13,898 nucleotides of DNA from a virus. A model generated the notes under the pieces. It had not been told where the DNA came from. It did not search any database and worked only from the letters and a program-made list of their open reading frames with translations. The position numbers were made by a program, and so were the translations under genes. Every line of letters begins with the position of its first letter. Positions within the stretch are counted from its first letter, which is position 1. Where the stretch lies: UHGV virus genome UHGV-0274736; one strand, given 5' to 3'. This document shows, one piece after another, positions 1,801 through 6,163 of this stretch.

Positions 1801-1957
1801 GGTGTTCTTTCAGTTCTTCAATTCGAATATTGGTTACTTCTGCATGTGCTATCTGCGCCCATATCATCCAGTGGTTATAGCAGTCATTGATGTCCTCTGC
1901 TTCGATAACTATGTCGAATGGCTCTTCATTCCATTCACCTGTGACTCGGAAGTGCAT
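1790..1957 (-). CDS. Small hypothetical protein (55 aa) between xis and the DUF551-like gene
   Basis: ATG at 1955-1957 (minus) preceded by GGAGA 6 nt upstream; translates MHFRVTGEWNEEPFDIVIEAEDINDCYNHWMIWAQIAHAEVTNIRIEELKEHQAA; below the length cut-off of the ORF track. Lambda has a small ORF in the equivalent position. Confidence 0.5.
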   Translation of the reverse strand: MHFRVTGEWNEEPFDIVIEAEDINDCYNHWMIWAQIAHAEVTNIRIEELKEHQAA

Positions 1958-1962
1958 TTATC

Positions 1963-1994
1963 ATCTCCATAAAACAAAACTCGCCGTAGCGAGT
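1963..1994 (-). terminator. Hairpin (AACTCGC-CGTA-GCGAGTT) plus T-rich run on minus strand downstream of the DUF551-like gene
   Basis: 7-bp perfect inverted repeat at 1977-1994; minus-strand continuation TTGTTTTATGG at 1963-1976. Confidence 0.35.
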
Positions 1995-2057
1995 TCATAT
2001 AAAAGAAATCCCCGCGAGTGCGAGGATTGTTATTCACCTTTTACGGCAAGTTGCAGG

Positions 2058-3248
2058 TTAGCCACGGTTAACCTCCTGCGGAGGTTCCGGTAGAGGCATC
2101 CAGTGGGTTACATTGCGGCTCTGTGTTTCGAAAAATTCATCACCATTGCGGACAATATCGAAAAACTCTCCGTCTCGATATTGCGCATAAAGAACGAATG
2201 CGCCATCACATAAAATAATTACGTGCTGACCATCATCTGGCATTAGCTCACTACAGCTTATCCAACCATCCGGAGTTCCCGGAGTTGGTCCATCGAATTC
2301 GGGCATGTCAGGACCTTTTCTGATAGCTTTAGCCAGCTCCAGCGGGTCATCGTAAAGCCAGTCGCCAGTTTGTGGGTGATTTGCTTCTGCAAGCTGCGCA
2401 GCCCATTCAAGACCATCTTTTTGACCTTGGAGATAATCAAGTGGCAACTCTTCATGATTACTTGCAGGTTCGACACACTGAAGCATGGCAGCGTGGCAGG
2501 CATACTCAACGCCCTTAACTTCATCTGCGCAGTAGTTATAGCGATTGCATTCCACTAATTTCCATTTGAGTTTTTCAATTGCCTGCGCGACATCAGCCTG
2601 TATTACAGGAACTGGCGGAACGGCTGTTTGCTCTCGAACGTCATTAGTCGCTATCGGTTCTGCTGCCAACTGACTGGCATATTTGTTAATGGTAACGATA
2701 AGCTCTTGCTCAGCCTCATCCAGACAATCACCGATACCTCGCCTGTCACCGTCAAAATCATCGAAATCGGCACGAATCTTGGCAACCTTCAGGATTGCGG
2801 ACAACACCTCACTAGGAATTACCGGATAGTTGGTTGACGTTTCCGCGATTTCCCGAAAATTATTGGTTGACGAATTCTTGTTTTCCCGAAAGTTTCCGGA
2901 CTGAAGCATGGCGGCGCGGCAGGCGTTCCAGCCATCTGCGTAACAATCTCTGTGTGTCTTGAAATATGTCACCGCCCTTGGTACATCGTTTACGTCTATT
3001 TCATCCGGCACAACCGGCGCAGGTGAGTCAGCATAAACAGGAATAACGTCCGGTTGCTCTTTATTGCTTTCATCCGTTAAAGCCCAGAATAATTTCCCGG
3101 CCGGATGTTTGAAAATATAAGCAACTGGTTCGGCTTCCAGTGATGCCAGCGCAATTCGTGCCAGTTCCATTTGTTCGCCACGGGTAAGCCCGTTATCAAG
3201 CGGATTTTTAATGAATAATTCGATACGTTCTTTGGTAATAGTGGTCAT
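2058..3248 (-). CDS. Prophage protein with C-terminal DUF551-like domain (396 aa)
   Basis: Start ATG with GAGGAT SD; stop overlaps nothing; C-terminal segment WISCSELMPDDGQHVIILCDGAFVLYAQY...THWMPLPEPP resembles the DUF551 signature as I recall it; start codon overlaps the stop of the upstream gene (ATGA). Confidence 0.6.
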   Translation of the reverse strand: MTTITKERIELFIKNPLDNGLTRGEQMELARIALASLEAEPVAYIFKHPAGKLFWALTDESNKEQPDVIPVYADSPAPVVPDEIDVNDVPRAVTYFKTHRDCYADGWNACRAAMLQSGNFRENKNSSTNNFREIAETSTNYPVIPSEVLSAILKVAKIRADFDDFDGDRRGIGDCLDEAEQELIVTINKYASQLAAEPIATNDVREQTAVPPVPVIQADVAQAIEKLKWKLVECNRYNYCADEVKGVEYACHAAMLQCVEPASNHEELPLDYLQGQKDGLEWAAQLAEANHPQTGDWLYDDPLELAKAIRKGPDMPEFDGPTPGTPDGWISCSELMPDDGQHVIILCDGAFVLYAQYRDGEFFDIVRNGDEFFETQSRNVTHWMPLPEPPQEVNRG

Positions 3249-3454
3249 TTGTTAATCCTCAAAACTTTATGCCCGGGCGCAAAAGCACGTGTTTTGTCTT
3301 TACTTATTCGCCACCCGTCTTTACGGGCCTCTTTTGCACAACCAGACCATGACGTACCGATATACTCACCGAAGTCTGGCACTGGATATACACCCTCCGT
3401 ACACTGGCGGCAGTCACAATAGAGATGCATGGTGTAACTTGCAGCGATAGCCAT
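3245..3454 (-). CDS. Small Cys-rich protein (69 aa), possible zinc-binding
   Basis: AAGGAG SD before ATG at 3454; motif C-D-C-x2-C plus a later Cys; translationally coupled to neighbours on both sides. Confidence 0.55.
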   Translation of the reverse strand: MAIAASYTMHLYCDCRQCTEGVYPVPDFGEYIGTSWSGCAKEARKDGWRISKDKTRAFAPGHKVLRINK

Positions 3455-4578: not shown

Positions 4579-4875
4579 TTAGTCATTACTGATAGCGCCA
4601 TAGCGTGAGCGGTAATTACGCAGACGCGGGTCGATATATTCAGGGAATTTGTCTATTGTCGCTTTTCGCAACGGTCTCATTGCTGTTTCGTTTGTTCGGT
4701 CCTTCTCCTGTTTTAGCGCGAGTTGTATATCGCGTCGGTACTTCCGTTCTTCTTTTGTTTCTGGTGGCAGAGCAAGAAACGCGTCGAGATTATTCTTGAT
4801 ATTTTCCAGCACCTCCGATATGGAATTGCCGGAACAGCGGCGCGGGTCGTCCGCACCATATAGAGGCGCTGGCAT
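4579..4875 (-). CDS. Hypothetical protein (98 aa)
   Basis: Complete minus-strand ORF in operon context; weak SD; no recognised motif. Confidence 0.5.
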
Positions 4876-4898
4876 AATGGGAGCCTTATTTTCAGTGA

Positions 4899-5486
4899 TC
4901 AGAAAGGAGGGTAATCGTTCTGGCTGTAACCATAATCATCTGCATGATTATGGCTTACGTTTTTAGAGCGATTGTCTTTATCTTTGAGGCTGGCAACCAT
5001 GTTGGCGATAGTTTCTGGTTGCTTGCCTTCCGCCTTTTCTTTAAGGGTTTGACCTGTTTGTGCAATAAACGGGATGCGTATTTCCATCTGGTAGCTGTCT
5101 GCGCCAGTCTTTTTGTTTGTGGTTAATACTTTCTGGAGCACTAACCCGATTTTCTTTCCATGAAATTCAGGTGCAACAAATTTACTGGCGGAAACCATAT
5201 GTTGCGTTAATTGTCCAATCCCGGCACACCCCATCATGGCGTGAACGACATTTGTGCCAAATTTGTTTTCCGTTCCGTCATTTTTCTGAACACAGACGCT
5301 AAGATATTGGATTTTACGTCCGTCGTCGGATTCGCCAGAAAACTCAATAAATTTGGCTCCTTTTTCTGATTGCTTTAGTTCTGCTTCAGTAATGGTAATG
5401 ATATGAGCGCCAGTTTCGTTAATAAAACCGCCTTGTCCTGCGGTCAGTGCTGCTTCTTCGTTATAAGTAAAAATCACGCTGATCAT
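4899..5486 (-). CDS. SSB-like recombination accessory protein, DUF669-type (195 aa)
   Basis: N-terminal pattern G-x-F/Y...ITEAELKQSEKGAKFIEF typical of DUF669 as I recall it; acidic C-terminal tail ending DDYGYSQNDYPPF resembles the SSB C-terminal DDDIPF tip; ATGA overlap with the upstream ATPase gene. Confidence 0.55.
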   Translation of the reverse strand: MISVIFTYNEEAALTAGQGGFINETGAHIITITEAELKQSEKGAKFIEFSGESDDGRKIQYLSVCVQKNDGTENKFGTNVVHAMMGCAGIGQLTQHMVSASKFVAPEFHGKKIGLVLQKVLTTNKKTGADSYQMEIRIPFIAQTGQTLKEKAEGKQPETIANMVASLKDKDNRSKNVSHNHADDYGYSQNDYPPF

Positions 5487-6163
5487 GCGGCGTTTTCCTT
5501 AATTTGATGAACATTATTGATGCCGTAGTAATCACAAACAGTGGCATCGACGAAAGAGAGATCGTTATCAATCTCATTGGAATCAAACATTCCCATTGGG
5601 GATTTAACAGTGTCTGCACCGTTGTTTTTCGTGATGAAAAAGAACTGGTCATCGCGGGTAAGAGTGCGAAGAACTATAGTAAACATGCCTTCGACAGTGA
5701 TTTTCTCGTCCAGCATTTTGCCGATAGTTTTCATTTTCACGCGCCCCATAGGGGTTTCTTCGGTATGGGCAAGAAAATAGACTCTCAGGTCATCAGGCGC
5801 ATCCTGTGCAGCCTTAATGACCTCCCATGCGTGACGGCCTATCTCAGTGAATTTATCAAACGATTTTTCTTCTGAGCGGCGCATAAACTCATTGCTCATC
5901 ACATACTGGAAGTCATCAACAATAACGATTCTTTTCCCGTATTCGTGAGCACGCTTAATTACGGCAACTATTACGTCCCATTTGTCAGTGGTGACTACGG
6001 TTCCTTTTTTTGCTCTGGCATCCCATGCAAGCCAGTCTTTTGATTTAAATGGTAGCGGCTTGCCTATTGGTTTTATAAGTATTGCTTCCTCGGGATTGAT
6101 ATTTCTCATGCTGGTTGATTTTCCGGTGCCAGACTCACCGAGTATTAATGTCGCAGTTCCCAT
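5483..6163 (-). CDS. Sak4-like RecA-fold ATPase (AAA_24 type, 226 aa)
   Basis: Walker A GESGTGKST near the N-terminus, Walker B RIVIVDDF; size and position next to an SSB-like gene are typical of phage Sak4 recombinases; GAGGTGA SD. Confidence 0.75.
   Translation of the reverse strand: MGTATLILGESGTGKSTSMRNINPEEAILIKPIGKPLPFKSKDWLAWDARAKKGTVVTTDKWDVIVAVIKRAHEYGKRIVIVDDFQYVMSNEFMRRSEEKSFDKFTEIGRHAWEVIKAAQDAPDDLRVYFLAHTEETPMGRVKMKTIGKMLDEKITVEGMFTIVLRTLTRDDQFFFITKNNGADTVKSPMGMFDSNEIDNDLSFVDATVCDYYGINNVHQIKENAA

Follow-up and report, generated by a model that had tools for sequence, protein, structure and literature searches.

The two near-identical 25-bp sequences that recur in a single reading frame of an early gene of virus UHGV-0274736 are most probably (with a probability of roughly 0.78) two instances of a conserved in-frame joint of about 33 nt, encoding (G)WN-AC(R/H)AAML(Q/H), at which the protein modules of phage early genes are shuffled. 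The same figure extends, jointly with the whole of this explanation, to the presence of two copies in one gene: a chain of modules that includes B and D carries the joint twice, rather than a domain having been duplicated in place. Positions refer throughout to the window, that is, the whole stretch of DNA that was analysed (13,898 nt).

The repeat and the gene that carries it

The features concerned are the following.

484-1554: integrase, adjoining neighbour of the DUF551 gene
1532-1750: excisionase, adjoining neighbour of the DUF551 gene
2058..3248, minus strand: 396-aa mosaic early gene of the EaA / "DUF551 domain-containing protein" type (from its ORF and translation)
2058..2267, minus strand: DUF551 domain (module F, aa 328-396), with conserved start and end motifs and a variable core
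2268..2476, minus strand: module E (CVEPASNHEELPLDYLQGQKDGLEWAAQ...), preceded elsewhere by many different motif-bearing modules
2477..2501, minus strand: motif copy 2, GCCTGCCACGCTGCCATGCTTCAGT, encoding ACHAAMLQ (aa 250-257) at the end of module D (CNRYNYCADEVKGVEY...)
2502..2899, minus strand: C-D block between the copies, which together with one copy makes up a 423-nt unit present or absent among homologues
2895..2937, minus strand: full conserved island at copy 1, encoding (G)WNACRAAMLQ(S)
2900..2924, minus strand: motif copy 1, GCCTGCCGCGCCGCCATGCTTCAGT, encoding ACRAAMLQ (aa 109-116) at the end of module B
3127..3167, minus strand: further conserved island, ELARIALASLEAEP, which also bounds homology blocks
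4579..6163, minus strand: genes for an abc2 anti-RecBCD protein, an SSB and a Sak4-like single-strand annealing protein (PHROG matches, E = 1e-45 to 1e-107)

A search of the window for repeats returned a direct repeat at 2477-2501 (ACTGAAGCATGGCAGCGTGGCAGGC) and 2900-2924 (ACTGAAGCATGGCGGCGCGGCAGGC), identical at 23 of 25 bases (92%), in which the longest unbroken identity between the gene's two copies is 13 nt and the start-to-start spacing is 423 nt, or 141 codons. On the minus strand, both copies are read in one frame, as ...DGWNACRAAMLQSGN... and ...VEYACHAAMLQCVE..., respectively. A degenerate 25-mer with at most three mismatches has the two copies as its only sites in the 13.9 kb; the mean over 200 dinucleotide shuffles was 0.00, and by our own estimate about 1e-6 direct repeats of 23/25 would be expected in a gene of 1.2 kb; a chance origin of the repeat is excluded. 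The first-pass annotation had described a near-identical, in-frame repeat of about 25 bp in the DUF551 gene, and the repeat search and the shuffles agree that it is real; the peptides NACRAAMLQ and YACHAAMLQ that it read in the same frame are likewise confirmed by translation (...GWNACRAAMLQ... and ...EYACHAAMLQ...). Its site at 2476-2501 stands, whereas the one given as 2901-2925 is one base off and lies at 2900-2924; of the 24 identities in 26 bases that it counted, 23 in 25 hold and the twenty-sixth base is mismatched (C2476 versus G2899), and the distance of about 425 bp becomes exactly 423.

The 396-aa gene is a chain of modules, N-B-C-D-E-F, situated just past int and xis of a lambdoid prophage, and the window as a whole gives piecewise matches to lambdoid and P22-like phages of E. 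coli and Salmonella. The genes for abc2, SSB and the Sak4-like protein belong to the same leftward block (operon) as the mosaic gene, with the Sak4-like gene about 2 kb away. Pfam DUF551 (PF04448) is matched at the C-terminus only (aa 328-391, E = 8.5e-20, 71.8 bits versus a cut-off of 22), and both repeat copies lie outside this domain. Besides DUF551, the 396-aa protein has no Pfam match at E <= 1 and no relevant NCBIfam match, and no Pfam or NCBIfam family for the motif-bearing modules was returned with either the query or six short motif-terminated proteins. The Ead_Ea22 signature (PF13935 / IPR025153) is absent from the 396-aa protein in the Pfam search at E <= 1, so that the pro-lysogenic role reported for Ea22 is not transferable to this gene; PF13935 is present in a neighbouring gene of one related locus (L126). 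Fifteen PHROG families match separate pieces of the gene, several of them stopping near the motifs, at aa 116-122 and 258-260.

Three other islands of 40-55 nt (3127-3167, 2236-2290 and 2058-2113, encoding ELARIALASLEAEP, TPDGWISCSERMP and THWMPLPEPPQE, respectively) have unrelated DNA on either side in other phages and bound homology blocks there. The first of these, for example, appears as short HSPs of 90% identity amid unrelated DNA in two loci (L002 and L003), and matches to phage P7 and to E. coli stop at 3156-3167. A histogram of HSP endpoints, which is biased towards the motif when the loci have been selected by the motif, was used for these other islands and not for copy 1. By its sequence, the gene looks like a series of variable cassettes between conserved joints, the variable core of DUF551 included. 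Just downstream of motif copy 1 lies an imperfect 33-nt tandem repeat (2830-2861 and 2863-2894, 78% identical) that encodes NFRENKNSSTN and NFREIAETSTN; some viral loci hold a single unit (SGNFREISETSTNSP...), so that copy number varies there too. Between xis and the DUF551 gene, 1975-2033 on the plus strand gives a sub-threshold Rfam match to Leu_leader (21 bits versus a gathering score of 50, E = 0.16), which is probably due to chance.

Breakpoints, flank combinations and copy-number variants

Coverage of at least 80% of the gene was not found in any phage record or complete E. coli genome; hundreds match pieces of it, and the edges of these pieces recur at the motif. Stx1-converting phages share 2478-2933 only (94%), a segment bounded by the first GWN base at copy 1 and the final codon of copy 2, while the match in POCJ13 covers 2603-2933 and that in L003 likewise ends at 2933. 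Out of 60 evenly spread phage matches, 18 stop at query 871-881, which is the upstream edge of copy 1, and five begin at query 421, which corresponds to window position 2478 at the end of copy 2. Moreover, three phage records match nothing beyond 31-38 nt round copy 1 (within query 840-881), with 97-100% identity. Blocks of homology, in other words, begin and end at this sequence. Junctions also occur elsewhere among the homologues, such as PVPV|TPDGW in P0096 and POCJ13 and "ALAAMDSSESV|ELPLDYLQG", so that several joints exist, of which the motif is one. The EaA protein of POCJ13 was considered as a deletion between the two copies, which proved wrong, since its junction lies downstream of module C.

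A further block is found in upf89.5 of phage P7 (L001), where 707 nt (2461-3167) are 98.7% identical, which indicates a recent exchange between lambdoid and P1-like phages. Besides the P1-like plasmid prophage P7, SJ46 and D6 match as well. Among complete genomes, the closest match is in the chromosome of E. coli SCAID URN1-2021 (L004, 1314-2519), with 97% identity over 2236-3156; the locus is annotated with a DUF551 ORF and several "incomplete, partial" pseudogene fragments, and this copy of the gene appears to be decaying.

The contexts of the motif were collected by scanning viral contigs with a pattern that fixes A-C-(R/H/Q)-A-A-M-(L/F) and the first two bases of the next codon and leaves synonymous positions free. 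The viral samples include related prophages, which was countered by deduplication and by using only pairs with unrelated flanks. At least 124 copies were found in viral contigs; 124 of the 124 listed are in frame, in 106 distinct protein contexts. The 28 residues upstream of the motif are of many unrelated types, most of which end in ...GWN or ...xWN, and the types downstream include SGNFRENK..., GAEPVSQTYKL..., AGNSPVTPDGW..., SAEPASNHEELPLDYLQG... and GKGE followed by a stop; the motif peptide often stands directly before a stop codon or a linker. When the flanks of the 113 unique loci among the matches listed were clustered, the upstream sides fell into 55 families and the downstream sides into 64, joined in 97 combinations. 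Within these 113 listed loci, one upstream family meets 13 downstream families, one downstream family meets seven upstream families, and four 2x2 "four-gamete" rectangles are complete. Such a combinatorial pattern of flanks requires exchange at or very near the motif, and the same short DNA is found in different genomes between flanks that are unrelated on both sides.

The same pattern was run on bacterial genome contigs solely as a control for codon usage and as a rough guide to host range. The matches there are mainly chance, out-of-frame ones in GC-rich genomes, and the copies that are in frame and preceded by WN occur in Enterobacterales only. Across the loci compared, the motif is evidently a widespread joint at the ends of modules in the mosaic early genes that lambdoid and P1-like prophages carry in Enterobacterales. 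Two short contigs of a "Segatella copri" MAG (L247 and L266, 47-48% GC) carry motif proteins of the enterobacterial-phage type (...DIAAEIWNACRAAMLHGKGE*) and are most likely mis-binned E. coli phage contigs.

The number of motifs per gene varies in nature. In the 240 proteins collected, a relaxed pattern picks out two motifs in 110, a single one in 84 and none in 46, and a three-motif (expanded) form was not found among them. The most exact comparison involves P0058 (locus L125), a protein of 406 aa with the N-B-C-D-E-F layout of the window gene and copies likewise 423 nt apart, and two viral loci (L073 and L095) whose one-motif N-B-E-F proteins of 264 aa equal L125 minus 423 bases. Both short genes follow the region upstream of copy 1 in L125 at about 97-99% up to ...GGCTGGAACGCCTGCCG and the region downstream of copy 2 at 100% from GCCTGCCGCGCTGCCATGCTTCAT onward, and the switch falls inside a shared stretch of eight bases, GCCTGCCG, the first eight of the motif. 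The crossover is thereby mapped inside the sequence, with parental-type flanks, and the short genes have exactly the structure of a recombination product between the two copies of L125, or of its reverse. Alignment of these loci shows the joint to be an apparent crossover site, whether the partners are related phage genes or the two copies of one gene. The first-pass annotation had regarded the repeat as a potential substrate for in-frame deletion or expansion, a suggestion upheld by these natural variants that differ in motif number.

A wider range of architectures was found, namely N-B-E-F, N-D-E-F, N-B-C-F, N-B-stop and N-B-C-D-stop with a separate DUF551 ORF. For instance, P0122 is N-B-E and P0042 is N-B-C-D-E-F with near-identical B modules, P0152 is N-D-E, and P0096 and POCJ13 are N-B-C-F. 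Many proteins of 120-147 aa stop 3-7 residues past the motif; an N-B protein ends in ...GWNACRAAMLQGKGE. In a Stx1a-converting phage (L003, 1109-2304), the homologous gene is split: one ORF of 272 aa terminates four codons past copy 2 (...ACRAAMLKGDKS*), and the DUF551 domain is carried by a second, overlapping ORF of 126 aa, an arrangement that reads as a gene fission or fusion at the joint. A synthetic query for the junction of the window gene's own B with E matched many B'-E proteins with other B types; judged by identity and coverage, none of the 120 best matches listed has the window gene's own B type before E. Three loci (L029, L052 and L079) hold two adjacent paralogous genes with one motif each, 670-910 nt apart, between which recombination would fuse the genes in frame; in L052, the B-type and D-type modules are in two neighbouring genes.

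Conservation of the motif, alternative explanations and proposed mechanism

The first-pass annotation had taken the repeat to point to an internal domain duplication. In this explanation, a linker, a small helical module and the motif would have been duplicated in situ, after which the interior diverged and the motif was kept by selection. The two units do share a layout, with a proline-rich stretch (EQPDVIPV...PAPVVP versus EQTAVPPVPV), 35-45 residues and AC(R/H)AAMLQ, and self-comparison of the gene gives one other similarity in register, a weak 72% match of 25-mers in the proline-rich linkers (within EQPDVIPV and EQTAVPPV) at a spacing of 426. Both units are also predicted, at low confidence, to form helix hairpins that end at the motif: the AlphaFold model (57-sequence alignment, mean pLDDT 44.5) is confident for DUF551 alone (pLDDT 70-85) and places the motifs at the C-terminal ends of helices 100-116 and 243-256, the second of a hairpin in each case, with a pLDDT there of 25-36. 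However, BLASTP of 66-aa segments round each copy aligns the 8-aa motif alone (ACRAAMLQ versus ACHAAMLQ), Tandem Repeats Finder returned nothing on the gene, and motif copies from unrelated genes in other phages are as close to each copy as its partner is. Interiors that have diverged to saturation imply saturated synonymous sites in the motif as well, yet five of its six synonymously variable codons are identical. Moreover, the same motif DNA occurs in dozens of unrelated contexts, modules of the B and D types are also found apart, in different genes that are adjacent in some cases (L052; P0152 and P0122), and the D slot can hold alternative cassettes (P0051). Similarity does not span the unit beyond the short motif; a recent in-place duplication is not supported and an older one is quite improbable, though the two module types may share an ancient ancestor. 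The first-pass annotation had set against its proposal a repeat that does not extend together with a copy number that never varies among homologues; the repeat indeed does not extend, but the copy number varies.

The preferred reading, a joint at which modules are exchanged, also has to account for the conservation of the motif at the level of nucleotides. The commonest form is an exact 23-mer, GCCTGCCGCGCCGCCATGCTTCA, which is the sequence of copy 1 and is carried by 71 of the 124 listed viral matches. Over 5914 pairs whose far flanks are unrelated, background identity is about 0.25 and is exceeded solely between -9 and +25, counted from the motif start, with the free third positions in the motif 0.67-0.93 identical. 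This first sample had been picked by the peptide, and the test was repeated on loci picked by module E, with a pattern for ELPLDYLQG; an M(L/F)(Q/H/R) tail stands at most 20 codons upstream of ELPLDYLQG in 60 of the 94 unique loci among the matches listed. Where the upstream sequences are unrelated, identities at codon positions 1, 2 and 3 in this sample are 0.91, 0.87 and 0.77 in the motif versus 0.34, 0.27 and 0.23 further upstream. Identity across the motif falls off from the E side, and several junctions keep just ...AAMLQ or ...AMLQ, as would be expected if crossovers were scattered over the motif. The Leu codon is CTT in nearly all listed copies and is invariant in the sample anchored on module E, and the chance pattern matches in unrelated GC-rich bacteria show no preference for the codons of the motif.

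Purifying selection on the peptide as such (a helix end, a binding site or a processing site), with no role in recombination, would explain part of this pattern. Copies in Brenneria and Pectobacterium keep the peptide with 1-4 synonymous differences, which suggests that the peptide is also constrained as protein, and its conservation in distant Enterobacterales despite codon differences, like its frequent position right before a stop or linker in the manner of a domain terminus, agrees with such selection. Left unexplained, however, are the high synonymous-site identity in unrelated contexts, the near-fixed rare CTT codon, the homology blocks that end at the motif and the crossover mapped inside it, and very little probability attaches to this account on its own. 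A cis element, in which the 33 nt or so act as a DNA or RNA signal within the coding sequence (a protein-binding site, a recombinase or nuclease target or an RNA structure), would fit the conservation at synonymous sites but is barely credible, given that codon positions 1 and 2 are conserved above position 3 as under coding constraint, that the viral matches listed are always in frame, that no Rfam match was found in 1900-3400 at E <= 1 bar the sub-threshold Leu-leader elsewhere, that Chi (GCTGGTGG) is absent from the window, and that unrelated flanks offer no conserved pairing partner.

For the in-frame joint, the mechanism would be homologous recombination on very short homology. Because the reading frame is constant, an exchange yields an intact ORF, whether a new combination, a fusion, a fission, or a deletion or insertion of 141 codons. 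Repeated exchange would in turn keep the DNA of the joint near-identical across contexts that are otherwise unrelated: identical copies would go on exchanging and so reach many contexts, and diverged copies would leave the pool. The peptide itself is probably the C-terminal end of a helix with a flexible linker behind it, under constraint at the protein level. Phage annealing recombinases (e.g., the nearby Sak4-like protein) or RecA are the probable agents of the exchanges. Where homologies are short and diverged, phage recombinases account for most exchange (De Paepe et al. 2014, PMC3945230), and the minimal pairing lengths quoted are 23-27 bp for Red-beta and 31-34 bp for RecA (PMC3945230). 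Among the listed loci, an exact run of at least 23 nt across the motif is found in 42% of the pairs in which both flanks differ, and one of at least 27 nt in 27%. The 13 nt of unbroken identity in the window gene is shorter than these published lengths, and deletion between its copies should therefore be rare; if it occurs, an intact N-B-E-F protein of 255 aa would result.

A further step, unlikely on balance, would be that the island is kept at the DNA level as a dedicated in-frame "splice point", through which annealing recombinases shuffle short effector modules under selection for evolvability; if this were true, the joint would be a DNA-level analogue of exon shuffling, and prophages would hold a combinatorial library of early proteins. 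More speculative still, AML(Q/H) before G, S or A may be a processing site that releases modules. The residue after AML(Q/H) is nearly always G, S or A, and AMLQ|SG resembles the LQ|(S/A/G) sites of 3C-like proteases, a resemblance only.

Comparison with known systems

The mosaicism of temperate phages has long been debated between conserved "linker" sequences and random illegitimate joins followed by selection. Susskind and Botstein reportedly proposed a modular theory of lambdoid mosaicism that works through "linker" sequences at module boundaries, and boundary sequences have been discussed for HK97, HK022 and HK620. The present joint resembles these lambdoid boundary sequences in its short conserved DNA, unrelated flanks, block ends and many flank combinations; unlike them, it lies within an ORF, keeps a single frame, encodes a conserved peptide and occurs twice per gene. 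Since the joint is inside an ORF and always in one frame, protein modules are shuffled at it, not whole genes or operons. It offers a clean and countable case of the linker route within a reading frame, linking dozens of unrelated modules, and a handle for measuring the shortest homology that phage recombinases use in nature. For annotation, "DUF551", "EaA" and hypothetical early genes may be described as chains of cassettes instead of single families, and it becomes possible to predict variants that arise by in-frame deletion, fusion or fission, which are frequent in prophages, those of Stx phages included.

Among studied recombination systems, relaxed recombination by Red-beta, RecT, Erf and Sak (PMC3945230) resembles the exchange proposed here, which would use short, slightly diverged homologies, and the 23-33 nt of the island come near the pairing minima quoted; the effect was shown there for Rad52-like proteins, whereas the window encodes a Sak4-like protein and an SSB. 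The Sak4 of HK620 (PMC5928155) provides a phage recombinase for comparison. Mosaicism of the exo-xis or ea region, with its ea22, eaA and DUF551 genes, has been described in blocks, DUF551 being termed a "portable domain" and one Stx Ea22 variant having a C-terminal DUF551 (PMC10834534). The window gene shares with these cases the genome neighbourhood and the kind of block mosaicism, but its protein has no Ead_Ea22 match, and the blocks of that paper are given without the present joint. Phage mosaicism by short-homology recombination is thus already known; neither the motif string nor the present in-frame joint was found in the searched literature, in which the joint is new. Finally, the gene resembles proteins that change in repeat number, with two in-frame direct repeats 423 nt apart and natural one- and two-copy variants that differ by that unit; unlike in tandem-domain proteins, only the end of the unit, some 25-33 nt, is repeated, and the unit interiors are unrelated.
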